From Balanoglossus misakiensis (taxonomy: Eukaryota; Animalia; Hemichordata): a DNA stretch of 64,000 bases. Below, in pieces: positions 28,668 through 49,773 of the stretch (positions are counted from its first letter, which is position 1; each line of letters opens with the position of its first letter). The translations under genes and the position numbers were made by a program. The stretch spans positions 1,412,281-1,476,280 of the forward strand of contig CM082584.2 of assembly GCA_040954595.2 (NCBI GenBank). Reading direction: 5' to 3'. The notes beneath the pieces are model-generated. The model ran no database searches. It saw only the letters and a program-made list of their open reading frames with translations, and was not told the origin of the DNA.

Positions 28668-30399
28668 ATCGAAACACCCTTACGGAGGTCCTATACATAT
28701 AGTATGTTGCTTGAGAGGTCACATTCAACACTGCCCCGCGTCAAAGTGCTTCACCGTAGGCAAACCAAACTTGGCACAGTTATAGCTAATACATAGACCA
28801 TGTGAAAAACCGTATTTACGCTTCTGCTCAAGACCCTCTAATTTTTGTATCGCTTCTCAAAAATTAGCATTCACATTCATAACATCGCACGATCGAGTCA
28901 CTGCCACATCGCCAGTATGCAGGGTTTCAAAATAATTTATTACAGCTAAAACGAGCGTCATAAAGCGTAAGACAACATCCTTTTAGACAATAATTGATGG
29001 AAAACGAACCTTGTCATCCAAAATTAAAGCGTGTACACCTCTTTTCATGCCAGCATGCAGGTTTCAAGTTTTCGGTAGGCCGCCATATTGGATAGAAGTG
29101 AAAACGAGGCTCTCTGTTGTAAGATTTTGGCGAATTTCAATAGGCTGAGATCAGACTGGTTGGACATGTACGAATATGAAGAGACGATATCAGTTTGTTC
29201 ATGTCTTCCTTTAGTAAAAAATCTTTTTTGAACTTTGTATAGAATTCATTGAACTTTACTTTAGCTTATGAACTCTCATTTGCACATCGTCATCTTGAAA
29301 TTGTGTCGACTTTATCATAAGGTTTTTATAACTCAACTAGGTCGCAAAACCTATTTAAGTTAGTGAGAATAGGACGTTCACCTTTTGGGTTGATGGCTAC
29401 AGCCGTTAATCCTGACTCATACACATGTTGCAGCCAGTATACTCTGCAGACATTGGACACAATAGTTTTACGAACCATTAAATTTTATTGGACCATCAAG
29501 TTTATTGACCCATGACGTTCATATAGATTTTATGACACGACTGACGCTATAATCGGTCCTTACCTTTGGCGAGCCAAGTGTTTTATAACATCATAAGATA
29601 TTAATACCTATCACCCAGTCAAACGATTTCAAGTTATAAAATTTCCACGCCAATAGGACGCCTTTAGGTGGAAATGCAACCAGGTATCCTAAATAGGAAA
29701 ATATTCCGGGTATCTGTCAAGTTTAGTCCCATATTTAGGGGACCAAGAGCCCTCAGGCGCTTGGTCCCCTTCTCTTATTGCTGGAGTTTGTCTTCTTTCT
29801 TCTTGAGTCGTTTTTTTGCGCCCGTTTTTCTCTGAAATTCCGGCAGGTGCGCCTCCAAATTTGGCACGGTGGTTGGGGCCCATGAGTACTGGTGCACCTG
29901 CCCTTTGAATTTGTAATTAGTCACGTGACTTTGTGGCTATAATCGAGCGAAATTTTCAAATTGACCTAATTTGCACGTTAATGGGGGCATGTACATTCTT
30001 TTCGCGATTTTTGTAGACCATGTGGCCAAAATCCCCTGTGCCAAATTTCAAGGTCCTAGGCCACGTCGATTTTGAGAAGAAGATTTTTGTAATATTTTTT
30101 CGCATTTTTTGGTGGGCTGAGGACGGACACTGGGGCATCGGACTTTGACCGTCATTACGTAATGTTGTGGAGATCTCATTAGCAGGCTACTCACTTCTGG
30201 CGGGTTGCAGTAGTCCTTGGAAAATCGGCTGAAATACGTAAACAGACCAGTGATTATTTTCCACGGAATGAATTTTGGGACAACACATTATCGGAGTTCA
30301 GGCTGTGTTAGGGCGTTTTATTGAATTACGCTGAGTTTGGATTGACCACTGTGTTACCACTAAAATTTTTTATAGCAATGTTCTTTCAATTTCGAGTCT

Positions 30400-32860
30400 T
30401 TGCAATGTTGTTGACTCCGACCATATTCCTGTTTCAATAGAGGTTCATTTCAACACTTCTGCTGATGAATGCTTCAGCAGTAGTTCCTTCAAGCAATGTA
30501 ATTTTCGAGTTGATTGGAAAAAATTGTCACAGCAGAATATATCCGCCTACACCCGTTGTACCAAAGCCAAGGTTGATAAGATTAATATATCCGAAGAGTT
30601 ATTCTGCACTAATGTGAACTGTACATACCCTTCGCATTTACAGGCAATTGATACTTGTTATAGTAGTGTTGTGGACGCATTGAATTGTGCTGCAAAAGAT
30701 ACCATTAGGCGTAAGTTTCACCAGAAAGTTCATGTTGTGCCTGGCTGGAACGATTTTGTAAAAGAAAGTCACGACTATGCCCGTTCCATGTTTTTATTAT
30801 GGGTTAATGGGGGTAAACCTTAACAAGGCCCGCTTTTTGAAACCATGAAATCTTCCAGAGCTCGTTTTAAGTATGCTTTACGTGCTTGTAAAAAGATTGA
30901 GAATCAAAATAGGGCTGACAAGATGGCTGACAATTTACGCTGCCACAAACAGAACGACTTCTGGAAGGAAGTCAGAAAGCAAACTAGCAGAAAAATGCCG
31001 CTTTCTGACACTGTAGGTGGAGCGACTGGTGAGAGTGAAATTGCAATTATGTGGCACAAGCATTTCAGTGATATTTTGAATTCTGTCCAGGCTCAGACTG
31101 GTAAAAATGACATCGAGGAGAAAATGAAGTATGTTAAATTTTCTTCTGATATGTATGTTTCTGAAGAAGAAGTAATTTCTGCTATACATAAGTTACCTGA
31201 CGATAAGACAGCTGGCATTGACAATATTTCAGCTGAGCACCTCAAATTCTCAGACTCCTCTATTTTACCCATTTTGACTTGATTGTTCATGGTTACCTGC
31301 AAACTGAGGCTATCAAAGTTATTTTAGTTCCAATTAAGGATAAAACTAAGCTTTGTAGTGATGCCAGTAACTACCGGCCGATAGCACTAGCAACTGTTTT
31401 CTCTAAAGTTTTTGAGCCTATTTTACTTTCTCGTTGTGAGGAGTTTCTTACCTCTCATTATTTACAATTTGGTTTCAAGCGAGAACATTCAACTGACCTG
31501 TGTTTATTTGCATTTAAAGAAATCATTAGCTACTACACCAGCAATGGAAGACCAGTGTTTACTTGTTTTCTGGATGCTTCAAAAGCTTTTGACAGAGTTA
31601 ATCACTTTAAACTGGTTAACAAGCTCATCGACAGGAATGTTCCCTTGTATGCTGTACGAATTTTATATTAAAGGTCCCATGCCATGCCCTATACAACCAC
31701 GCGTAAAATCACTATTTGGGTCTTGAAGTTAACGTATGTTACTATCTTGCAATGCGTTTTGCCCCTTGTGCTTAGATAACAAGCAAGTAAAAGTGGCGGG
31801 TGGGCGTGTACCCCTAACCCAACTCAGTCGATTTTTTTGGCTTTTCGAAGTTAAGCCGAAGACTTATCTTGATGTGGACAAATAGTCTTTCACACCTTTG
31901 TAAATCCTCTGCCTGCAATGTGAGGCAAGGGCTTCCTTTGCTTTGAACACTGTTTATATAGCTTATCTTTGTCTGTGGACTTAATTACTCATGGACCGAT
32001 AATTACACTTTACTGTAAACAGAATGGTACACTACGACATAGTGTACTTGTTTGTCCATATGCAAATACCTTCGCCTGGCTCGAGTGCGAAGTGGCTCCC
32101 CGATCACAGGCATGAAAAAAGGTGGCAAATTCCGGCATTCGTGCACATTTTTCGGAACCGACACAATAGGCAATGCATAGACAGGTACCCTAGGTGAGCT
32201 TTTGACGTGGAAAAATGAAAACTTTCCAAAGCATGACATGTGACCTTTAATGGTACAGAAATCAATTGTTTACTGTGTTGTGGGGTAATGAAACCTCAGA
32301 GTTGTTTTCTGTTTCTAACGGTGTAAGACAAGGGGGAGTACTCTCTCCCTATCTTTTTAATGTCTACATTGATGATCTTATCAATGCACTCTGTAAAGCC
32401 AAAGTTGGCTGTACCATGTGTGGTGTCAGCGCTAACACTTTAGGTTACGCTGACGACATGACTCTACTCAGTCCAAGTATTAAGGGTCTACACCGTCTTC
32501 TTAGAATTTGTGAAATTTATGGCAAGGATTATGATATAATTTATAATTCTAGTAAAACTGTGTGCATGCTTTTTAATGGGAAGAATATGAGCGTTCAAAG
32601 AATTCCTTCGGTTAAACTTAATGACATCACTTTAAAGTTTGTACCTGTACACACCTATCTGGGCCATGTTATATCTTGTGAGGGTTGTGATAATGAAGAT
32701 ATTGAACGACAGAGAAGAGCATTTTGTGTTAGAGCAAACATGCTATTGAGACATTTTCAACATTTTAGTCAAGATGTGAAGAAAGTTTTATTTTTGGCAT
32801 ATTGTAGTAATATTTACTGTTGCAGTTTGTGGGCATCCTTTAAAGTAAAACCGGTGAAAA
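30400..32860 (+). pseudogene. Non-LTR retrotransposon ORF2 remnant (APE C-terminus + reverse transcriptase), RTE-X-like; stops, frameshift and MITE insertion
   Basis: DSDHIP endonuclease end (~30413), then NYRPIAL, QFGFK, FLDASKAFDRVNH, GVRQGGVLSP and YADD across ORFs 30524, 30845, 31279 and 32266. No 3' tail is seen. Confidence 0.9.
31672..32246. mobile_element. 575-bp TTAA-targeted non-autonomous element (Kolobok-type ends) inserted in the LINE RT
   Basis: TTAA|AGGTCCCATGCCATGC ... GCATGACATGTGACCT|TTAA (14/16 TIR match). Removing it rejoins RT sequence RILY*WYRNQLFTVLWG. Confidence 0.9.
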
Positions 32861-33564
32861 AATTTAAAACAGTGGACTTTGACCCTAAGTCGCTAATGTT
32901 GTGGGAGGTTTCATTAGCATTGTAGTCACATGTAGTGGATAGTAGTTTGGGAAATTGGCTGAAATACGTCAGCAGACCAGTGATTTTCTTGCACGACAGG
33001 AGTATGGTACCAGCAATAATCAGAGATCAGGCTTCGTTGCCGTTCAAAAGTTCCTACTTCAGTCGTGATGTTGCAACTGGACGTTCAGTATGGGGGTCGG
33101 CCCGCAGGTGGCCGTGTGGGTTATCAGGTCGCCCGTAACGGCACGCAGCTACATGCAGCTGTATGGGACTAAAATAATACACCCGATTCGGGTGTCACCT
33201 GTGACACCTGCATAACTCAATAATTATGTGCATGCGTAATTGTGGGGTCAATGAAAGGGGTGGTAGCGTGCTATTTGTTGCACATGGATCAATATGAAGT
33301 CCGATTTTCCCGTCAAGTTGTGGGCGACCTTATGTGACCTTTCACCTACTTTTGCTTAGTGAGCATCCACAGCAGATGCATGCAGCTTTGGCTTGGGAGG
33401 GGGGGGGGCATATACGGATGGGACCATAATGATATACCAAAGGCGGGGTCGTCTGTTGCACCTGCCTAAGTCATTGATTTTGTACATTTAATTGGACACT
33501 AACCAACAGGGCGATAGGTGTGGTTTTTGTTCCACAGGGACGAATGTAAGTGTCAGTTGGTTTT

Positions 33565-34744
33565 TGCCCAAATGTCCATTGAGGCCTGTATCCGTGATCT
33601 TAAGGACTGGATGACCCAAAACAAGCTTCAACTCAACGACTCCAAAAACTGAGATTCTACTTATTCGTTCACAATTTCATCACTCTGCTGATGCTATTGA
33701 CAAGATTACCATTGGTTCAAGCTCTGTTCCCGTCGTTAAATCAGCTCGCAATATTGGTGTAATATTTAAGCAATAAAACACCCCCAGCCATGGTATATCA
33801 CGAGATTTTGACCAGTTCACGACATATACGCACGAGCGATAGCGAGTGCGTATATGGAGTTGAACTGGTCAAAATCGAGTGGTATACCATGGCTGGGGGT
33901 GTTTTATTGCTATTATATTATGCCAGTATATTGAAACTTTGCATAAAACATTTTAAAAAGGCATTTTCTTTAACTATGATATATGACTGTGGTATATGGC
34001 TAATATATCACGGTCACGTGTCGTGTCTCGACCAATCAAATAGCGTGATTTACACCATCAATATACTGGTATAATATAATTGACAATACGCACATGTATA
34101 AAGATCACATCAAGAAAACTTGTCAATCAATATATTACCACTTTCGCCGTGTCGGACAAATCAGGAAATTTCTTAACAAAGCAACATGTCAAACAGTGAT
34201 TCATGCTATTTTGGCAGCGAAACTCGACTATGGTAATGCATTACTGTATGGTATACCAGAACGCAGTCTGAACCTTCTACAACGCACACAAAATACAGCT
34301 GCAAGAATCATAACTCGGTCCAGGAAGTCTGCCCATATAACGCCAGTTCTTCAACTTCTTCATTGGTTACCAGTTTGCCACAGGATAGAGTATAAAATAA
34401 ATCTGCTCACATACAAAGCCTTAAATAATCTCGCTCCGAACTATATCCGCGATCTCATTCGGACATATTCTCCTGGTCGCAGGCTTCGTTCAGCTAATAA
34501 GAGCCTTTTATGCACTACAATGTACAAACGTTCTTCATACGGTGGCCGAGCATTCTCTCATGCTGCAACGAAACTGTGGAACATTCGTCAAGCTCCAAGT
34601 TTGAGTATCTTTAAGAAAAGACTGAAGACGCATTATTTCGCAAGAGCATATGGTGTGGGCCAATGAGCACAAGCGCCTTTGAGTATGACACTTGTTATAG
34701 ATACTGGCGCTATACAAATTTCTCTGATTGATTGATTGATTGAT
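33565..34744 (+). pseudogene. 5'-truncated L2/CR1-group LINE (end of RT, C-terminal domain, microsatellite tail)
   Basis: IRDLKDWMTQNKLQLNDSK, RNIGVIFD, KLDYGNALLYG, LQRTQNTAARII, HITPVLQLLHWLPV and FKKRLKTHYF are present, ending in an (ATTG)n tail at ~34725-34744. Confidence 0.9.
33767..34080. mobile_element. 314-bp TSD-less insertion carrying a long hairpin
   Basis: Inverted arms AGCAATAAAACACCCCCAGCCATGGTATA ... TATACCATGGCTGGGGGTGTTTTATTGCT (33769-33911). Excision restores the LINE frame GTA ATA TTT GAC (VIFD) with no duplication. Confidence 0.8.
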
Positions 34745-38979: not shown

Positions 38980-39200
38980 GAAGAGACAAAGAAAAGCATA
39001 GCAACCTCTGCTGATACTGCCACAACAAGCACAAGCACAAACACACCCCAGCCTGTAGCTTCTGCGAACCAACAACCCCCACCCTATCCAGCCGCAGCAT
39101 ACCAGCAACACTTCCAGCAGATGTCATACCCGAACCCATTCGTGTCTCAGTACGCTGCGTTTGCAGGAGCCGGACAGCCGCCACGATATAACATCAATTA
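38980..39200 (+). other. Possible orphan exon encoding a T/S/P/Q/Y-rich low-complexity peptide
   Basis: Acceptor TTCTTTTTATCCTCCACAG|G followed by an open frame, EETKKSIATSADTATTSTSTNTPQPVASANQQPPPYPAAAYQQHFQQMSYPNPF. No partner exons were identified. Confidence 0.35.
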
Positions 39201-40660
39201 TATTTGTTTTCTGAAAATGCCTATTGTTGACCAAAAGATGGCTAAATGGCAATTTTGTACTGAGCGGGGTGTCTCAATAAGACCGTTGTGCTGGTATCAG
39301 CATATTTTTTGCACACACACACACAAAAAAAACGAATTTACATACATCACAAGGGCTCTGAATATAAAGGAATAAGTTTGTATTTATTTTTTCTAACAGT
39401 TACCTTTTTGAGCAAAGAGGCCAAAATGATATTTTTTTCCCTCAGTGGGGTCAGTAAGAGTGGGTTTTTTAGTACTTTTATTTATCATTTGATCACCAAT
39501 GGGAAGAAAATGGCATAATTTTCGTATTTTCTAGAAATGACACTTTTTGGGCAAAAACTTGCCAAAAAGGCACTTTTATCTTGAGTGGCATCAATAAAAC
39601 TGCTTTTTTGGAAACTTTTCACATACAGTGGGCATATAATTCATTATCAGATCTCCGAAAGTGAAGAAAATATATAAATTTTGAGTGTTTTCTGAAAATG
39701 ACGTTTTGGGGGCAAAAAGTGGCAAAATGGCATTTTTTCTTGAGTAGGATCAATAAGACTGCTATTTCTGGAATCAGCACCATTTTTTACATAGGATGAA
39801 CATTTCATATATAACATGATCTCTGAGCTTTATGAAGAAAAGTTTGTTTTTAATTTTTTTTCTAAAAATGGCCTTTTTGGGCAAAAACTTTCCAAAAGGG
39901 CATTTTTGCATTAGGTTGGGTCAATAAATCTGCTTTTTTCGAATAATCACCAGATTTTACATAGGGTGGGCATATAATACATTATCAGATCTCCGAAAGT
40001 GAAGAAAATATATAAATTTTGTGTGTTTTCTGAAAATGACGTTTTGGGGCAAAAAGTGGCAAAAATGGCATTTTTTTCTTGAGTAGGGTCAATAAGACTG
40101 CTATTTCTGGAATCAGCACCATTTTTTACATAGAATGGACATTTCATATATCCAATGATCTCTGAATATGATAAACACAATTTATTTTTAGTTTTTTTGT
40201 AAAAATGACCTTTTTTGACCACAAAAAGTGGCCAAAAATGGCATTTTTGTATTGATTGAGGTCAAAAAGACTGCTTTATTTTTTAAAGTCACCACTTTTA
40301 ACATAGAATTGACTTTCCATATATCACCAGATCAATCATTATGAAGAAAACCGTGTGTTTTATTTTTTTTCTAAAAATGACGTTTTTGGGGCAAAAATTG
40401 GTCAAAAAGGCAATTTTCTGTTGTTTTGGGTCAATCGAACTACTTTTTTCGTAATATTCACCAAATTTTACATAGAATAAGCATATCATATGTTATCAGA
40501 TCTCAGAATGTGACGAAAACAATGTGTTTTTAGTGTTTTCTAAAAAAGACCATTTTGGGGTTAAAAAAGGCCAAAATGGCAATTTTGTCTTGAGTGGGGT
40601 TAATAAGACTGACTTTTTTGGAATGAGCACCATTTTTTACATAGAATGGACTTCTCAAAC
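39200..40660. repeat. Diverged ~170-bp tandem repeat (~8-9 units, ~340-bp dimer)
   Basis: A TCAATAAGACTGC-like anchor recurs at ~39273, 39451, 39591, 39750, 39921, 40089, 40262, 40431 and 40601. Alternate units are more similar to each other (39640-39800 vs 39978-40140). Confidence 0.8.
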
Positions 40661-40777
40661 CTTCCTTACCAAAAATTCTGATTAACGGCACCTATCTCAT
40701 AGTGTAACCAGACTACAAGTGAAGAACCCCAGTAACAGACGTAACGAACAAACAAACTACATGTACTAACAACAAAG

Positions 40778-40890
40778 TATTCAAAGCCTTATCACATAGC
40801 GAGATTATTACGCCATGAATATTCATAAGACCAGTGTATATAAGTAAGAAGAGAATGCTACTTGTGGCCAATCCCTTGCTTCCAGACTTA
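40778..40890 (+). repeat. Split direct repeat A1 (113 bp)
   Basis: TATTCAAAGCCTTATCAC...TTCCAGACTTA, identical by eye to 46948-47060. Confidence 0.95.
40837..40844 (+). promoter_or_regulatory. Candidate TATA box in repeat A
   Basis: TATATAAG lies ~60 bp upstream of the leader-exon ATG at 40897. Position is the only evidence. Confidence 0.4.
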
Positions 40891-40896
40891 GAAGTG

Positions 40897-41133
40897 ATGA
40901 TGACTGACGGACGCAGTAATACTCCGGCTACCACAAGCTTGCCTTTATCGGCTACCACGGCCACTTTTACACAGGCTCATGTAGCAGGGCCTTCAGCTAG
41001 TCAAGGCAGCTCTACACGTGTTTCGGTGCAAGTCCCGGAAGGCGCAGCTTCTCAGGCTCAGGTGGTGGCAGGCGATACGCCCGCTCAGCATAATAATAGG
41101 GATGGCCAAGATCAGCGTTTATCGCAGCAGCAG
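40897..41133 (+). CDS. Putative leader exon (79 aa, T/S/A/Q-rich) of the YR retrotransposon
   Basis: ATG 7 bp after A1, open frame MMTDGRSNTPATTS...RLSQQQ, ending at a consensus donor CAG|GTAATT in phase 0. Confidence 0.65.
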
Positions 41134-41281
41134 GTAATTATCAGTTTTTGGCTCATTAGCGGAATGTAAATGTCCTTCGGTCTTTGGCTAGGTTTTGTAC
41201 ATACATGTTTCATCGGCCATATTTTGGTCGGTTTAGTTCGATTATGTTGTTATATTTATTGGGTGTACTGTTAACACTATT

Positions 41282-41700
41282 GTGCAATAGTAGGCGCTCT
41301 GGGAGCACCAGGTGGAGTTGCACGAATATGTTATTATGGATGGTGCAATAGTAGGCGCTCTGGGAGCACCAGGTGGAGTTGCACGAATATGTTATTATGG
41401 ATGGTGCAATAGTAGGCGCTCTGGGAGCACCAGGTGGAGTTGCACGAATATGTTATTATGGATGGTGCAATAGTAGGCGCTCTGGGAGCACCAGGTGGAG
41501 TTGCACAAATATGTTATTATGGATGGTGCAATAGTAGGCGCTCTGGGAGCACCAGGTGGAGTTGCACGAATATGTTATTATGGATGGTGCAATAGTAGGC
41601 GCTCTGGGAGCACCAGGTGGAGTTGCACGAATATGTTACTGTGGTGGCACAATAGGTGTCCTGTGAGCACTGGGCGGAGCTGCATGAACATTGTTCATGT
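41282..41700. repeat. 61-bp minisatellite, 6 near-identical copies + 1 degenerate
   Basis: GTGCAATAGTAGGCGCTCTGGGAGCACCAGGTGGAGTTGCACGAATATGTTATTATGGATG starts at 41282, 41343, 41404, 41465, 41526 and 41587. Confidence 0.97.
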
Positions 41701-41743
41701 AGTGGAGAGCAATAAAGGAATATGCGGGGAGCATCGTAGAGTG

Positions 41744-41747
<4 letters not shown>

Positions 41748-41778
<31 letters not shown>
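41748..41778 (+). repeat. A31 homopolymer preceded by AATAAA
   Basis: 31 consecutive A; AATAAA at 41711-41716. Confidence 0.9.
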
Positions 41779-41779
<1 letters not shown>

Positions 41780-42197
41780 CATTCGACTGAAGTTCCATGC
41801 AATGTTTGATATTCTGTACAACGGTTGGAACGACGGAATGTGTGCAAGGAGTGCGTAATTAGGTAGATTTGCATATGAATGGGTAACAGTTATTTTAGAG
41901 CCACGCATACAATGGACATTGTTTAAGGCATGCCAGGTGGGGCGTGCATTCAAAAGATACCATATGGTTGTGGAGTGCTCCTGTGAATTTGCATAAGTTC
42001 TTTCTATTGTTCTGTATGCTCATAGTATCATGCATGTTGTTTTGTGGAATACGGTCATGATATTGGGTGTGACTTCGAATGTAGCCGAAATGGTGTCTGG
42101 TAGTGGAATTGTCTTACGCATGGGATATTGTAAAGTAACACTGTTAGATGATATCAGGATGTGACGTTGACTGATATATTTGCCTGAATTGTTTCAG

Positions 42198-42668
42198 GTT
42201 AATGAGAAGTTGACACTGCTAATGAAGAAAGTTGACAAAATCGAAGAAACAGCGGGTGTAGCATCTGTAGATGAAGCCTTGCATAAAGTGATGGAATTCG
42301 CGCATACCCCAGCCTTCTCATCAAGACCACAGGTGTTGAGTGCTCTACGTACGTTGGTGGATAGAGCTACTTTGGTGTCGCATCCTAAGCTGCAGAGATT
42401 TCGAGCTGTATTGTCGCAGTTTGAAGCGAATGATTTTGGAGAGGACGCTGGACGCTTGATCATTCTGTTACTGGGTAACAAAGAGGAAGAAGAGATTGCG
42501 TCGAAAGTTTCAAAATTCTTAAAACACAGGCCTTCCAACGATCGTTTTCGTCCGTATGGCCGAGGAAGGAGAAGGCAATCGTATGGGAAAGATTTCCGAT
42601 GTTTTAGATGTGGCCAGCCTGGTCATTTTGCCCGCAATTGTCGAATGAAGCCAGATCAGGAAACGTGA
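42198..42668 (+). CDS. gag: Gag-like protein with CCHC zinc knuckle (probable 3' exon)
   Basis: CFRCGQPGHFARNC knuckle preceded by the basic RFRPYGRGRRR stretch. It follows the acceptor TTGTTTCAG| in phase 0. Confidence 0.85.
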   Translation, partial: VNEKLTLLMKKVDKIEETAGVASVDEALHKVMEFAHTPAFSSRPQVLSALRTLVDRATLVSHPKLQRFRAVLSQFEANDFGEDAGRLIILLLGNKEEEEIASKVSKFLKHRPSNDRFRPYGRGRRRQSYGKDFRCFRCGQPGHFARNCRMKPDQET

Positions 42669-42933
42669 ATTTGTCTTGTAATTCAGTGACTGTAATGACG
42701 GTATTTTGGGATACATAATGAAATAAATACACCCGTCTTTATTGTATGCTGCATATTTGTTTATTTGTGTTGACGAATGATAAGTACATGTCCCATGTTT
42801 GAAGATTTGCATGTACGTATGCATATATATAATGTGGTTTAGGTTACCTCTCGATGGGAGGGGCCTTAACTAGGCTCTTTGCTTTTGCAACCTGCCATTT
42901 GTAGGATCCTGTCGAGGGGCGCCCCCACATTTC

Positions 42934-45156
42934 ATGACGGTTGATATCACCGTTTTGTTGATGGAATCCTCTTTTGTTTGCTGTTGGTTTCAGCCACCAG
43001 TATGGGAAAATGACTTTATGGTGGATATGCATGCTGTCCCGAGAACCCAATATTCGTGGAGAACGCTTGGGGGCGCCCCTCGTCAGGGTCCTCACCATAC
43101 CTCGCCTTCGATAGCTATGATAGCACGCGGAGTAGAGTTTGCAACTCCTGATGACTTGGTATTTCGGAATACGGAAGATTTCATGGCCGGGCAGATACAT
43201 GAACATGGTGATTATTGGGACATGATTACAGACCATATACATAACAAGAATGACATTATGGACTGGATAAGGAATCGTGTTAGTATTTCACAATATTTTA
43301 CCCATTTCAAGGGGGAGTTTAAAGGGCAACAGTATGATCATGATATTCCACCCCCTAGGGTGTTTCAGAATCATCCGAATTGTCATCAGCATGGTCGGTT
43401 TATCGCTCAGACTATCGCTGAACGTGTTAAAGCTGGAGCAGTGTCAGTTTGGGGGTTGGTTGGTCGCCACCAACCTCCTTATTTGGTTATGCCGATTTCG
43501 GTTGAACCGTCTAAACCGCGTATGTGTATTGACATGCGCTTTCTTAATCTATGGACGGAACCTCGTCCGTTCCACTTAGATAAGCTTTTTGAAGTCACTA
43601 GATACTTGGCTGAAGGCGATTTTCAGTTTAAGTGTGATGATAAGAGTGGGTACGACCACGTTTTAATACGACATACTGATAGAATGTATGTAGGATTTCA
43701 ATGGGCGGGGGTGTGGTATGTGAATAATTCATTACCTTTTGGTTGGAAGTTATCGGCATATGTATATCACACTTTGGGATATTGCGTTACTAGTTATGCT
43801 AGATTATTGGGAGTACCTTGCATTCAATATATCGATGATAGGCATGGGGGTGGATTAAAGTTGCCAGCTGATGCAAGTTCTTCTTGGGATAGTTTGCAAT
43901 GTGCACAGGCTGCAGCTTATATATTGTGTAAAATCGCTATTGATGCAGGATATTTTCTCTCTTTGGAGAAAAGTGTGTTATATCCTGTGACATCTTTGAT
44001 AATGTTAGGTTTTTCAGTCGATTCGGTGAATAGATCCTTTTCTATCCCGGATGATAAAAAAACGAAGTTTTTAAATTTGCTGGAGGATGTTCTGTCACAG
44101 AGGGCAGTTCCACTTTTGACAATGCAGAAATTAATGGGGAAATGCATTTCATTTACGTTAGCATTACCATGCGCTCGGTTATATGTTCGACAAATGGCCA
44201 ATGCTTGTGGGAAAGCTCAGATATCGAGTAGAGCTTTGATACCTATAAGGGGACGCTTGAAATCTGAGATTGTACAGTGGAAATCCATCTTAGATTCGGC
44301 GGGTAAATTTATTTGGCCAACCGAAAGTCATGTAGGGGTAAGGGTATTTTCTGACGCAAGTCAGTACAAATGGGGTGCGGTTATGTACGTAGCTAATAAC
44401 AAGGTGGTTATAGGAGATATGTGGGATAGTAAGTGGAAAGATTTTCCCATTATAAAGAAGGAAGCAGAAGCTTTGTGTAGAGCATTGGTTGGTTTTCAAG
44501 AGCAAACTCGTAATACTCGAGTTGATGCATATATCGATGCACTTCCTATAGTACAGGCATGGAATGGGGGAATTCCGGGAGCAAAAGATGTTGATTTGAA
44601 TGAAATTTTGAAGCGTATCTTTGACTTCTGCTTTCAGCATAATGTTCGACTTACCCTTACATATATACCTTCTAAGGCTAATGATGCCGATCTACCTTCT
44701 CGATCTACATCATTGTCAAATGCTACTTTGACCGCTGTGGTATGGCAATTCCTGGAGGAAAATTTTGGTCCTCATCATATAGATGGCATGGCTGATGTTT
44801 CTAATAAGAAGTTATCTCGATATGTGTCACAGTTTCCTCAGATAGGATGTGAGGGTGTTAATTTTTTCCAGCATGTTTTCTCAGACAAGGATACCATTTA
44901 TGTGTATCCACCATTTTTCTTAGTGGCTGCGACACTTAAACATGTCATTAGTCAGAGATTACATGCCACAGTGATTGTACCGAGAGGTCGTTTTCTGGCT
45001 TCGTATTGGCCCGTTATTAATCAATTAGCAGCTGCGGTTATAAAGTTGGGTAGTCGAGGGGAAATAGGTATTATTCAAGCCCCCTCTACTCAGGGTTATA
45101 TAGATTATGAGTTGCGGTGTGACCTCTTGGCAGTCAAATTCGATTGGGATGTATAA
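42934..45156 (+). CDS. pol: Reverse transcriptase / RNase H / C-terminal adenine methyltransferase-like (MT) protein
   Basis: RT motifs KPRMCIDMR, DDKSGYDH, LPFGW and YIDD; RNase H motifs FSDAS, KKEAEAL, YIDA and ANDADLPSR; MT-like GPHHIDGMADVSN and YVYPPF. The frame is 740 aa and uninterrupted. Confidence 0.95.
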   Translation: MTVDITVLLMESSFVCCWFQPPVWENDFMVDMHAVPRTQYSWRTLGGAPRQGPHHTSPSIAMIARGVEFATPDDLVFRNTEDFMAGQIHEHGDYWDMITDHIHNKNDIMDWIRNRVSISQYFTHFKGEFKGQQYDHDIPPPRVFQNHPNCHQHGRFIAQTIAERVKAGAVSVWGLVGRHQPPYLVMPISVEPSKPRMCIDMRFLNLWTEPRPFHLDKLFEVTRYLAEGDFQFKCDDKSGYDHVLIRHTDRMYVGFQWAGVWYVNNSLPFGWKLSAYVYHTLGYCVTSYARLLGVPCIQYIDDRHGGGLKLPADASSSWDSLQCAQAAAYILCKIAIDAGYFLSLEKSVLYPVTSLIMLGFSVDSVNRSFSIPDDKKTKFLNLLEDVLSQRAVPLLTMQKLMGKCISFTLALPCARLYVRQMANACGKAQISSRALIPIRGRLKSEIVQWKSILDSAGKFIWPTESHVGVRVFSDASQYKWGAVMYVANNKVVIGDMWDSKWKDFPIIKKEAEALCRALVGFQEQTRNTRVDAYIDALPIVQAWNGGIPGAKDVDLNEILKRIFDFCFQHNVRLTLTYIPSKANDADLPSRSTSLSNATLTAVVWQFLEENFGPHHIDGMADVSNKKLSRYVSQFPQIGCEGVNFFQHVFSDKDTIYVYPPFFLVAATLKHVISQRLHATVIVPRGRFLASYWPVINQLAAAVIKLGSRGEIGIIQAPSTQGYIDYELRCDLLAVKFDWDV

Positions 45157-45375
45157 ATCATGTAGTTGTTACTATTTATGGGATATATGATGGGTATACA
45201 GTAAATGGTTTTTCTTCTTTGGTGAATTTGTAGTATTGCAAAAGATCGTTAGGATTTTGATAGAGATATTATAAGTGTATCTTCTATTAATGTCAATATT
45301 ATCTGGTATGAAATAAATAAAATATTTTATGTCTTAGTAGACTGATGAATGGGTGTCTCTTATGATTTCTTCTAG

Positions 45376-46644
45376 ACATGTTGGATTTGTGGTGCTTTGA
45401 ATGATACAACATCTCAGTCATGTGGTGTCTGTTCATCAAAAGTGATCCAAGGAACCGGTTTAAATGACTTCAACGGTGTTGACCTTCATCATATCGACCA
45501 ACGTATCTCGGATTTATTAGGGGATCGATCTCCGTATGAGAAACAGAAAGACCGCTTAATACAAGAACTTGAGTTATTCCTTGCAAGACTCCCTGTGCCC
45601 AAGCCTGTAAGCCGAGCTAGCCCGCACGATATTGTTAGGTTTTTAGTCTTTAAGGATAAAGATGCGAAAACGCAAGTCCATCGTTACACATGTGCATACT
45701 TAGGTCAGCCTGGTCGTGCGCCATGCGGTTGTCCTAAACGTCTGAGGATAGGTTCAGCCAAAAACATGATATCTAAGATCTCTTCATATTTTCAAGCACG
45801 ACAAAAAGAAAATCCGAATCAGCGTTTTTGTAACCCCACTGATAGTATAATGGTGCAAAGGTATTTAAAGAAAATCTCTGAGGAGCAGGCACAAGCGAAT
45901 GTGACAGTCAGACAGGCTAAGCCGTTATTTTTGCCGAAGGTCATTTGCGTCTTTGAGCATTTGTTAAAGTTACTCTCTTCATGTTCGTCACCACTCTTAG
46001 CATATATATATGCTAGAGACATGGCCGTGTTTAAGCTTTTATTTTTCTCAGGTGATAGAGCAGGGGATCTGGGTCACATTAAGACACAGGAGGTTCTTCG
46101 TTTCCCCGATAATTCAGGTTTGCTTTTCAATCATACATTTGGGAAGACTCTTCGTGGATGTAATTCAAATATGTTTGTACTTAAGAGATGTGCGGATACC
46201 CGTTTGTGTCCTGTAAATACTTTAGAGCGATATATTGATTTGTCTTTAAATCTAGGTGTAGATATCATGACTGGGTATTTGTTTAGACCCACTAAACCTA
46301 ATGGTGATATAGAGAACAAACCTTTGTCATCGCAGGTTATATATCATCGGCTTAAACTTTATTTACAATCACTTAATATGGATGAAGGTGAGACACCACA
46401 CAGTCTGAGAAGTGCGTGTGCTATCACTATGTCGTTAGCGGGTGCTCACGTAGATGAAGTCATGAGTCATGTGGGTTGGAAAACTGAGAAGATGGCTGAT
46501 TATTATACTAAGCTGTCAGTTGTTGCCAATATTGGCCGCCAAGGCAATAGAACGGAGGATTTGCTTGCTTCCATGCGACATATTGAAAGGTATAATGCAA
46601 CTGAGAAACTTGTTGGATTCACAAGGGCTTTTCAGGCCAAGTAA
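45376..46644 (+). CDS. Tyrosine recombinase with N-terminal CxxC-CxxC ribbon and ALOG-like domain
   Basis: Catalytic R (DRAGDL), HSLR, HVGW and YY are present, with ALOG-like KTQVHRYTCAYLGQPGRAPCGCP. The frame opens at 45376 (TCWICG...CGVC) directly after TTTCTTCTAG; the first in-frame ATG is ~130 codons downstream. Confidence 0.93.
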   Translation, partial: TCWICGALNDTTSQSCGVCSSKVIQGTGLNDFNGVDLHHIDQRISDLLGDRSPYEKQKDRLIQELELFLARLPVPKPVSRASPHDIVRFLVFKDKDAKTQVHRYTCAYLGQPGRAPCGCPKRLRIGSAKNMISKISSYFQARQKENPNQRFCNPTDSIMVQRYLKKISEEQAQANVTVRQAKPLFLPKVICVFEHLLKLLSSCSSPLLAYIYARDMAVFKLLFFSGDRAGDLGHIKTQEVLRFPDNSGLLFNHTFGKTLRGCNSNMFVLKRCADTRLCPVNTLERYIDLSLNLGVDIMTGYLFRPTKPNGDIENKPLSSQVIYHRLKLYLQSLNMDEGETPHSLRSACAITMSLAGAHVDEVMSHVGWKTEKMADYYTKLSVVANIGRQGNRTEDLLASMRHIERYNATEKLVGFTRAFQAK

Positions 46645-46868
46645 AATGTGGGCGACTTTTCTGTGATCTGTTATATTATACGCAGCTACATGGTAGTTTC
46701 AATATAATAAATAGTATATACTTGTGGCTTGGACACTCCTCTTTCGTCCGTTTCCTTATTGACGCAAACCAGTGGGGGGAGTGGGGATTGAGGTTTGAGG
46801 ATTGGGGATTTAGGTGGGGGAATCTTTGAGGAGAGTTTTATAAATAATGAATATCGCGGGCAAATGGA

Positions 46869-47060
46869 CAACATCAGGCTCTTTAACCCATTCCTTATAA
46901 TAATAGGTATATCATTGAGCGGAGTGATTAGGCTTTAAATATTATATTATTCAAAGCCTTATCACATAGCGAGATTATTACGCCATGAATATTCATAAGA
47001 CCAGTGTATATAAGTAAGAAGAGAATGCTACTTGTGGCCAATCCCTTGCTTCCAGACTTA
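46869..47060 (+). repeat. Abutting repeats B1 (79 bp) and A2 (113 bp)
   Basis: CAACATCAGG...AATATTATAT|TATTCAAAGCC...CAGACTTA. Confidence 0.95.
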
Positions 47061-47190
47061 TAGAAGTTAAGATGTAATTAGGATCGAGTACCCAGGAGGG
47101 GGATAAGGTGACTATGTAGGAGGAAGTGGGGATCGGGTAAGGTGTTCGCCCACCCGCCCACCCCCTTTTTATCATTTCGCTCATGATTAC

Positions 47191-47269
47191 CAACATCAGG
47201 CTCTTTAACCCATTCCTTATAATAATAGGTATATCATTGAGCGGAGTGATTAGGCTTTAAATATTATAT
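47191..47269 (+). repeat. Split direct repeat B2 (79 bp), right end of the element
   Basis: Identical by eye to 46869-46947. Confidence 0.95.
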
Positions 47270-49773
47270 CAAGAAAAGTGTCAAGCGTCGTCAAAGAAAA
47301 CGAAATAGTTCTAGCATGGTTGGTAAAAGTTATTGGTAGAAAACGAATAGGGCCTTCTACAAATGACGTCTCAGACCCGCAAACGCCACCAGAACACAAA
47401 ACACATGCACAGAACAGTTTAAGCCGGTTGTTGTATGGAGCAGCAATAATCTGCGGTTGGGCCGTCGTAGATTTTCGCTGGTGGTGAAAATAAATAAAAC
47501 ACGATCGATGTTCGATTTATTCCAGATCACATGCGTTTACGGCCAGAAGGAACATAAAAGTCTTCAAATGACCATGTGGTGGCGCACTTTTTCCGATTGG
47601 CTGTATTTCAATTTGTTCGTGGTAAATTAATTTTGTGGAGGTGACCGGCACTGAAGCTCTTAGCTAGGATGAGGTGGGATGGAAAAATGCCCCATTTGAC
47701 TCATTTTAGCTGTTTTAAAATATACGACTATTTATAGACAAAAGGAAAATAAAACAAGCGCAAAAACATACCAAACCTAGTTTTATTAATTACAAAAAAA
47801 ATTGCTGAGTAAAGGTTTTCATGTGGGCATTCACTTTGAACTTGCTAAATTAATTTAAAGAGACAAAGTCGCTCTCTCTTTGTCCTTTTGCGATGATGGA
47901 ATGCTTGCTTGAAGTCTCTCGTGCAATAAATGATGTCGATTCATACATGTATGGATGGTGTATAGGTGGTCGGAATTTACATGTCTTTGCCACGTCCAAA
48001 CCAAAAACACATAAAATCAAACTTTGGGTCATGAAATCGAGTTTTGTTACAGTCTAGAATTTCATGCCACCCCTTTTGGTCATATTATTCTTGGTAGGCA
48101 AAAGTGACAAGTAGTCAAGTTTCAACACAGGCAACATTTTTACAAACAAACCACAAAGAAGACATCAAAAGGGAGAGAATTATAGAATGGTCAATGTGTG
48201 AATAGTTAAGATACGTAAAGTGGCCGGGTTCAACATAACATTAACTCATCGACTTCATATCGTCTTCATGCCATGGTTTTGCCTGCCCTGAAAGTTCTTG
48301 TCGTTGCAGAAGTGGTTTTGACAGAAAGAATTTAGTCTTCCGGGATGTTTGTGATTATTTGAACACCAGACAATACAATGCAACCTTGACTTCCAAAATA
48401 CTTACCGGCATTGCATTATCTTACCATGGTTAGGCCTACAGAGAACAAATTTTCAACAATATTTTCTGAGTTACCGCTGATATTTGTTTTGTAGTATGGA
48501 TATTAAATTATACATCCCGATACAAAACAGAATGTTATAGAATCCTTCCTGAGTGATATTGAAAAAAATACCGGAATGCTATAGCCTAATCTATGGTTAG
48601 GGTTATTGCTATTATTTTATATCAGTAATCGACTTTGTGTATATCAATGTCATTTTCATAACGAAAATGAACTCGAGTCTAATGTAAACGTTACGAATTG
48701 ATCGAAAGGCGCTCTGATGAATGTTAACACGAGTGCGCAATGACAAGACATGCATCGTGCATGACAGTGACAACAGTTCCAATAGAGCAGTTAAAAAATA
48801 AACCGGCCGTCCGTAAATTTATCAGCTATATTTTTTTTTATTTAGTCACGTTTTCCCTGTTGCATGCTATTAGTTCAGGGGCCAGTTTTAGCAGTGCTCT
48901 ATTGAGTACTTTCGTATCGATGGATTGATCTCTCGTCCAATCAGAATGGCGGATGGTAGCATGATCCGACATATTGCGTATTACAATAGGGCTTCCTCAT
49001 ACAGGTCAGAACAGAGAGGTCATTCCTTTTATTTTAGGACGTCTCAGCTCCTTTGTCTTTTCTGTTATTTTTTGACAAATGCGGATTGACGTTCCATTTC
49101 CAATTGGCGATAATTATATTTATTTGTATTTTATTGCATAAGCGCTTGCTAGTCGTTTTTTAGCAATTTTTTTTGTAGTACAAAAACACTGAAGAAAACG
49201 AAATATTTTATTCATTCGCACTTCCAAAGAACACCGTGACATAATTCCTCAATTTGCATTTCAGTGTGTGTGTCTGGTGTGTCTGCATTGACGTGAGGCG
49301 CATTCTCCACCCGCACACATACGTTGCATTGCATTCTTTGACTAATTAGTGTTACGTCATGTTGAAGCAGGATTCTGATTGAGTAGTAAGTAAGTTGCAT
49401 AATTGACGCACAGCTGGTGCCTCGTTCTCGTACCGCTGACCATTGCATTTGAAAAATCATTGCAGCTTTGACGTTCATCAAGCATGGAGGTCCCGGTCGC
49501 CTCCATGCTTGATGATGTCGTTTCTCTGGTAAGCATGGCATTTAATGTTATTTTACAAGTACATGTACACTCCTTCTAGCAAAAACTGGTCGTGGTAGGG
49601 CGAGAGGGTCCTCCCAACATCGAAATTCTGACTTTGGGAAGCGTTACAGCACCAAACAGTAAACTCACAGTCGCATGGAATTTGTGCGTTATATTACACC
49701 GTGCGAGTAAATTGTACGTCGTTCGTTGGCTCGAGTCAGCTTTGTTATTGTGGAGCAGGTGGTACCGTAACAC

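Follow-up and report, generated by a model that had tools for sequence, protein, structure and literature searches.

Positions 40778–47269 of a 64,000-nucleotide stretch of the genome of the hemichordate Balanoglossus misakiensis (GCA_040954595.2, contig CM082584.2, positions 1,412,281–1,476,280 of the forward strand; this whole stretch is hereafter the window) hold a young, intact tyrosine-recombinase (YR) retrotransposon of the ALOG type with PAT-like repeats, as its exact A and B repeats, Pfam domains and catalytic motifs indicate. This element likely makes its Gag, Pol and recombinase proteins by splicing one 79-codon leader exon onto each of three separate open reading frames (ORFs), a scheme that an earlier note on this DNA had put forward and that we examined in the sequence of the element and of its relatives. 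Judged junction by junction, the leader is very probably joined to gag, quite probably to pol, and with a fair degree of probability directly to the recombinase. The parts of the scheme, in window coordinates, are as follows:

40897–41133, + strand: coding leader exon, 79 codons of low complexity, ending in phase 0
41134–41139, + strand: splice donor GTAATT, the only donor scoring at least 4 bits from 40778 to 46387
41279–41691, + strand: 61-bp tandem array inside the first predicted intron
42198–42668, + strand: gag exon, 156 aa with a CCHC knuckle, behind a phase-0 acceptor with a branch-like motif at 42171
42994–45156, + strand: pol exon, 720 aa with reverse transcriptase (RT), RNase H and methyltransferase-like regions, behind a phase-0 acceptor
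45376–46644, + strand: YR exon, 422 aa with zinc ribbon, ALOG and catalytic domains

The leader frame ends in CAG followed directly by GTAATT (41133/41134), just as the earlier note had described, and the three acceptors it had named (42198, 42994 and 45376) all lie in phase 0 with gag, pol and YR, respectively, each behind a branch-like motif (42171, 42958 and 45342) with no AG between motif and acceptor. By a crude acceptor score the pol site is strong (8.8), the YR site moderate (5.9) and the gag site weak (3.4). An in-frame acceptor of equal score would be met by chance within the same search width in 4.2% of cases for gag, 0.4% for pol and 0.3% for YR, and in 0.6%, 0.05% and 0.05% when a branch motif is also required; these rates, taken over 12058 positions in the non-satellite part of the window with a crude score and thresholds set from the observed sites, are descriptive only.

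The three ORFs do not overlap. The gag knuckle matches PF00098 in Pfam (E 3.8e-07), and YR matches PF04852 (ALOG; E 9.5e-19, residues 51–168) and PF00589 (E 4.6e-11) with its catalytic motifs present. The Pfam matches of pol are weak (RVT_1, E 0.01; Dam, E 0.017), both falling under the curated cut-off, and motifs that we take to be those of RT, RNase H and a methylase-like domain are seen in this ORF. In agreement with the earlier note, YR has no ATG ahead of its CxxC/ALOG N-terminus: the first Met is residue 131, within the ALOG domain, and the TAG of the YR acceptor doubles as an in-frame stop. The predicted spliced products of 235 (gag), 799 (pol) and 501 aa (YR) agree with the summed lengths of leader and exon.

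Related DNA was retrieved by recombinase alignment, giving 81 loci (labelled L), 79 from metagenomes and 2 from prokaryote assemblies. Nearly all of them have a pyrimidine tract and an in-frame YAG ahead of pol and recombinase, and protein similarity extends to the acceptor AG and ends there. Of the YR rows, 31 of 44 had their best acceptor near the ORF start in phase 0, and of the pol rows 21 of 28, compared with 136 of 403 in a control inside coding sequence; both sets of rows include the window, whose own best YR site is the out-of-frame 45234. Among intact ORFs (long matches with at most one stop, window excluded), the best acceptor was in phase 0 for pol in 10/10 loci and 7/7 families (p 0.0005), and for YR in 18/24 loci and 8–9 of 12 families (p 0.004 at 9/12; the site picked in L080 is a wrong one inside pol). 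The pol junction, which had been thought the weakest of the three, is on the contrary the one found most consistently among relatives. At 11/24 YR and 6/10 pol intact loci the TAG of the acceptor also forms an in-frame stop, so that an upstream start codon cannot serve there. Short leaders rich in Ala, Pro, Val, Gln and Glu and ending in a phase-0 donor were found in L015, L016, L022 and L067, each with a phase-0 gag acceptor, and thus not only the position and phase of the acceptors but also, where leaders were found, the donors are conserved in related families, a comparison that the earlier note had proposed. There were no intron-less (spliced) genomic copies among the 81 loci, and each leader end found ran on into its intron, which fits selective copying of unspliced RNA.

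The spacer between leader and gag holds the tandem array and a 30-base A run, as might be expected if mutations or an insertion had spoiled this copy of an element that otherwise has ordinary starts or overlapping frames. Yet its three ORFs are open with catalytic motifs, its A and B repeats are exact, and spacer arrays and non-overlapping, acceptor-led ORFs recur across families. Tandem arrays lie upstream of gag in L001, L015, L016, L021, L022, L024, L026, L028, L046, L062, L073 and L081, which marks the 61-bp array of the window as a family trait and not as damage. The earlier note had named close homologues with ordinary ATGs or overlapping frames and no conserved GT/AG sites as the sign of a disrupted copy; as far as the 81 loci go this reading is refuted, and overall we regard it as highly improbable.

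Annotated proteins of relatives (labelled P) are gene models or predictions, RefSeq entries included; among the RefSeq models are XP_070565739.1 and XP_070570167.1 of Ptychodera, XP_065927831.1 of Magallana and XP_028405099.1 of Dendronephthya. A gag profile search gave 202 matches, of which 120 were listed and 19 were examined, along with the N-terminal 130 residues of some further members of their clusters. The gag exon is 54–68% identical to Ptychodera RefSeq proteins of 219–241 aa, and at least five Ptychodera RefSeq gag clusters (at least 15 proteins of 209–252 aa) open with a low-complexity leader carrying a [ST]F..AH motif. A profile of seven Ptychodera leaders scored the window leader at 17.7 bits, a value reached by none of 1000 shuffles; leaders from corals or lancelets went unrecognised by the same profile (309–833 of 1000 shuffles), and that of P0122 was recognised weakly (23 of 1000). 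In P0246 (238 aa, with 235 predicted here), the gag body begins with VSEKL after Q, matching VNEKL at 42198, and the Dendronephthya RefSeq proteins P0179 and P0199 switch from leader to gag at the points where L022 and L015 carry, in their DNA, a donor and an acceptor in phase 0.

For pol there were 9972 relatives at E 0.001. Among the best 150 of these 9972, P0350 carries the leader of Ptychodera P0121/P0122 and then 240 pol residues starting from residue 3 of the window pol, P0448 and P0354 are further leader–pol proteins, and the other N-terminal extensions are mostly intron-like read-through or chimeric predictions. In Ptychodera P0122/P0127 the recombinase part begins one residue before the first Cys, matching 45376, and in Magallana one 161-aa leader stands on both Gag (Logan contigs of 1266 and 1103 nt; P0132, P0147) and the recombinase (RefSeq isoforms P0080, P0092). 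The proposal of a common leader with three alternative acceptors is thus supported by phase-0 acceptors in related DNA and by leader-bearing Gag, Pol and recombinase models. As a separate observation, P0133, an oyster model named integrin beta-like, ends in a leader of the element family, a possible host capture of a transposon exon.

Several observations weigh against a leader joined directly to all three ORFs. In the window, the acceptors of gag and YR are exceeded in score by out-of-frame sites, at 42026 (6.8) and 45234 (7.8), respectively, and a leader was detected in just 4 of the 18 related loci searched, many of which seem decayed or incomplete. The supporting proteins are gene models, and among models of these elements P0135, P0137, P0138 and P0206 are plainly chimeric and Porites P0282–P0284 carry an extra piece between leader and gag. 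A search for the oyster leader on proteins of 310–987 aa (10 matches) returned no direct leader–pol protein, and the three direct junctions were not seen together in any single family.

Start codons count on the same side. The gag and pol exons each have a Met at residue 9, which the earlier note had missed, pol has an additional in-frame ATG at 42934, and an in-frame ATG precedes the match in 9/10 intact pol relatives and 10/24 YR loci (it is lacking in 1/10 and 14/24). Such starts would suit a reading in which the leader–gag intron is the sole genuine one, translation of pol and recombinase begins at internal ATGs through reinitiation, leaky scanning or internal promoters, and their acceptors are incidental. 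A recombinase starting at Met 131, however, would lose the zinc ribbon and most of the ALOG domain, and the conservation up to the AG, the phase bias and the leader–pol and leader–recombinase models speak against an internal-ATG reading, which we consider very unlikely. An acceptor ahead of each ORF also resembles operon resolution as generally known, in which case the acceptors would receive a host spliced leader in trans that resolves a polycistronic RNA. A non-coding spliced leader would nevertheless leave the recombinase without a start codon; the element owns a coding leader and donor, and annotated relatives carry that very leader, and we find this reading scarcely credible.

The recombinase models bear on the direct leader–recombinase junction in particular, since those of Ptychodera reach the recombinase via an 84-residue pol piece and not from the leader directly, and Saccostrea P0116 likewise passes through a pol piece, at a different position. 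These two points, which also speak against the direct scheme, would agree with a variant that keeps the common leader but reaches the recombinase, and possibly pol too, through a second donor in pol or gag, giving leader, short pol or gag piece and recombinase. Ptychodera P0121–P0123, P0126 and P0127 exit pol after ELTMDL, where P0350 instead continues with V. Two architectures can in fact be told apart among the relatives. Type I (the window, Ptychodera and coral-like loci) has a single short leader exon and three acceptors, and Type II (oysters, L009, L046, L052 and L063) combines a leader of several exons with a strong phase-0 donor inside gag (L046 2619, L052 1622, L009 165), which is read through for Gag and which in oyster models is used for the recombinase or pol; it is here that the oyster recombinase models leave Gag. 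The window has a GT at the homologous gag position, 42288.

This GT scores 0.3 bits as a donor, however, compared with 5.9 for 41134, and 2 of 5 Ptychodera gag clusters carry Leu at the equivalent position. At the place where the Ptychodera models exit pol the window has an Ile codon and no GT, and within its first 480 pol bases the sole donor of at least 0.5 bits is in phase 1. A recombinase tree (23 sequences, with one short row omitted) places the window element beside those of Ptychodera and corals with support 100/99, apart from the clade with internal donors, and a single well-supported branch divides the Type I from the Type II labels (on 4 and 8 rows; 11 carry no label). A second donor is therefore unlikely for the window, and the shared leader with three direct junctions remains the preferred reading. 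Because the recombinase donor varies between families, 41133>45376 is the least certain of the three junctions. The idea of a donor conserved within the 5′ region of pol was also considered and rejected, as no common position was found in 17 loci.

Signals for polyadenylation, poly(A), lie downstream of the ORFs:

42722–42727, + strand: poly(A) signal after gag, conserved in relatives
45312–45321, + strand: two overlapping AATAAA after pol, with no family-wide conservation
46706–46711, + strand: AATAAA after the recombinase, present in this copy

An AATAAA after each ORF, as described in the earlier note, is thus found for all three in this copy and breaks down as a family rule. An A[AT]TAAA within 100 nt of the gag stop was found in 15/20 loci, which are not independent, compared with 8% of 1684 background windows. 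Between pol and YR it is absent in 10/15 relatives and present in 5/15, a further point against the scheme in its simplest form, and the rule of a signal after every ORF was rejected for pol. In several relatives just 23–93 nt separate the pol end from the recombinase acceptor, which together with the 5/15 count suggests that the pol message there probably extends to the 3′ end. Two side observations concern such signals. The strong out-of-frame acceptor at 45234 lies downstream of the stop codon of pol and ahead of the AATAAA at 45312 and could define a short terminal exon and a non-productive message. Within the first predicted intron (41711–41779), an AATAAA at 41711 is followed ∼30 nt later by a run of ∼32 A, which may be a trait of the family or stem from the capture of a polyadenylated end.

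A predicted fold surrounds the pol acceptor:

42903–43092, + strand: predicted long hairpin with 25-nt arms (42903–42927 and 43068–43092) around the pol branch point and acceptor; z −4.9, 0/200 shuffles

Folding at z −1.9 or lower was seen in 8/14 relatives at the pol acceptor and 1/13 at the YR acceptor (25 shuffles each). As a conserved structure the hairpin is unsupported, since the pairing across the acceptor differs between relatives.

The element is bounded by split direct repeats in the order A1, three non-overlapping ORFs, B1, A2, B2, an arrangement shared by PAT-like and Ngaro elements:

40778–40890, + strand: repeat A1, 113 nt, identical to A2, with a TATA-like motif at ∼40835–40844 that is the likely promoter
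46869–46947, + strand: repeat B1, 79 nt, 100% identical to B2
46948–47060, + strand: repeat A2, 113 nt, identical to A1
47191–47269, + strand: repeat B2, 79 nt, the right end of the element
46931–46958, + strand: 11-6-11 pseudo-palindrome spanning the B1/A2 junction, with arms matching at 10/11, the likely recombinase site

The PAT-like label rests on repeat layout and domain content as set out in published definitions: RT–RNase H is followed by a methyltransferase-like domain (weak in Pfam), and a tyrosine recombinase and a gag zinc knuckle are present. The ALOG type is given by a recombinase with an N-terminal zinc ribbon (two CxxC pairs) and ALOG domain. Ngaro elements are defined by having no methyltransferase domain, and the pol C-terminus here is Dam-like. 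No inverted repeats were found at the element ends; inverted termini and an internal complementary region define DIRS1-like elements in the strict sense. The closest relatives come from the acorn worm Ptychodera flava, with the recombinase 49% and gag up to 68% identical. L016, L022 and L067 also have TATA-like motifs within or close to their A repeats. Repeat A ends in an acceptor-like stretch, with a pyrimidine tract and CAG (40878–40886 and 47048–47056), 11 nt ahead of the leader ATG.

The 11-6-11 geometry at the B/A junction was found in 6/6 elements (window, L046 7262, L063 7046, L067 5692, L016 7754 and L009 4970), and such sites give 22 overlapping matches in 42.5 kb of the window. In the integrated copy the six-base spacer is retained on the right side, and the left flank shows no match to it, a pattern suggesting that the element integrates without homology to the spacer. 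We presume a resemblance of this pseudo-palindrome to bacterial dif sites.

No second copy lies within the 64-kb window, and searches with the element returned 29 pattern matches in viral contigs with no relative among them, 0 Rfam matches at gathering score across 40500–47600, and no RNA run listed in a sequencing-run search with 41790–46770 as query. Among the related sequences, L080, L081 and protein P0076 are eukaryotic family members labelled bacterial, most likely through host contamination; L015 1–6908 and L022 887–6736 are head-to-tail family neighbours or collapsed circular assemblies, and the ends of L026 are identical over 55 nt. In the rest of the window, a 78-bp satellite occupies the first third (1–21452), a diverged 169-bp array lies immediately left of the element (∼39200–40720), and broken frames at 30335–34666 resemble, by eye, pieces of a LINE reverse transcriptase.

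These features can be brought together in a mechanism for how the element would be expressed and copied. Transcription would start in A1 behind the TATA-like motif, so that one promoter would give one primary RNA with four possible fates: leader–gag, leader–pol and leader–recombinase messages, and unspliced genome. Donor 41134 would join 42198, 42994 or 45376, producing the 235-, 799- and 501-aa proteins with a common N-terminal leader. The gag message would end at the 42722 signal, favouring the nearest acceptor and an excess of Gag, the pol message may end at 45312 or continue to the 3′ end, and splicing to pol may be held back by the hairpin that covers its acceptor. The unspliced RNA would be the copied genome, encoding solely the leader and 11 further residues (a 90-residue peptide), in which case the proteins must act in trans. 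Circular DNA would then integrate through the 11-6-11 site at the B/A junction. Our guess is that the shared leader serves as an assembly tag. Extended to a clade of YR retrotransposons in corals, acorn worms, lancelets and molluscs, the proposal that Gag, Pol and recombinase all come from spliced messages, with the common leader as a particle-gathering tag and a copied unspliced RNA that encodes none of them, stands at about even chances.

The scheme offers a concrete answer, with exact junctions, to how YR retrotransposons express three separate ORFs from one transcript, a point that the literature examined does not address. If it is true, a retroelement must splice for any protein and yet retains every intron in the RNA that is copied, which raises questions about the export and selection of unspliced RNA and about action in trans. 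Many ‘uncharacterized’ RefSeq genes in host animals would then be transposon messages, and copies deemed dead for want of a start codon may be intact.

Spliceosomal introns are reportedly mentioned in some YR elements by Goodwin and Poulter (2004). The element type itself is known from the ALOG-containing DIRS1-like retroposons of Iyer and Aravind (2012; PMC3537659), with which the window element shares a zinc-knuckle Gag, RT–RNase H, a methylase-like domain, a recombinase with zinc ribbon and ALOG, direct repeats and a marine animal host. That account calls metazoan copies inactive, whereas the window copy is intact with a leader exon and acceptor-led genes; it describes overlapping, fast-diverging 5′ ORFs for the Ectocarpus element and leaves them open for animal ALOG elements, whereas the window has one leader frame only, and the strings ‘intron’ and ‘splic’ are absent from its main text as available. 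With PAT-like YR retrotransposons the element has in common the A1-B1-A2-B2 split direct repeats, the methyltransferase-like domain and a recombinase in the same orientation (PMC4157794, PMC3266345, PMC6681497). Their ORFs are long and often overlapping, with introns unmentioned in the available parts of these papers, whereas those of the window are separate and acceptor-led; among the same papers, the PAT-like group is reported to be non-monophyletic. Nowhere in the full-text literature searched is a coding leader exon described as shared among the ORFs of a YR retrotransposon, and isolated introns may be in print.

Foamy virus Gag is translated from full-length RNA. Foamy virus Pol is made separately from Gag via a spliced message, as is Env, which resembles the pol splice predicted here; gag is among the products of both unspliced and spliced long terminal repeat (LTR) transcripts, and the upstream exons of env are non-coding (PMC7828637). 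The window element would differ from these viruses in that the exon common to its messages has coding capacity, Gag itself depends on splicing and none of the three proteins is encoded by the genome RNA. The proposed gag message is in turn like that of the plant Ty1/Copia element EVD (Oberlin et al. 2017), in which splicing and early polyadenylation yield a gag-only message and an excess of structural protein; EVD, however, has one splice in a single gag–pol ORF, Pol from unspliced RNA and no leader common to three proteins (PMC5580714). Action in trans has been shown for the reverse transcriptase of DIRS-1 (PMC7192593). The element type, gag splicing with early termination in plant Copia and a spliced pol in foamy viruses are therefore known, and what would be new, as far as the literature searched goes, is a coding leader shared by three proteins.

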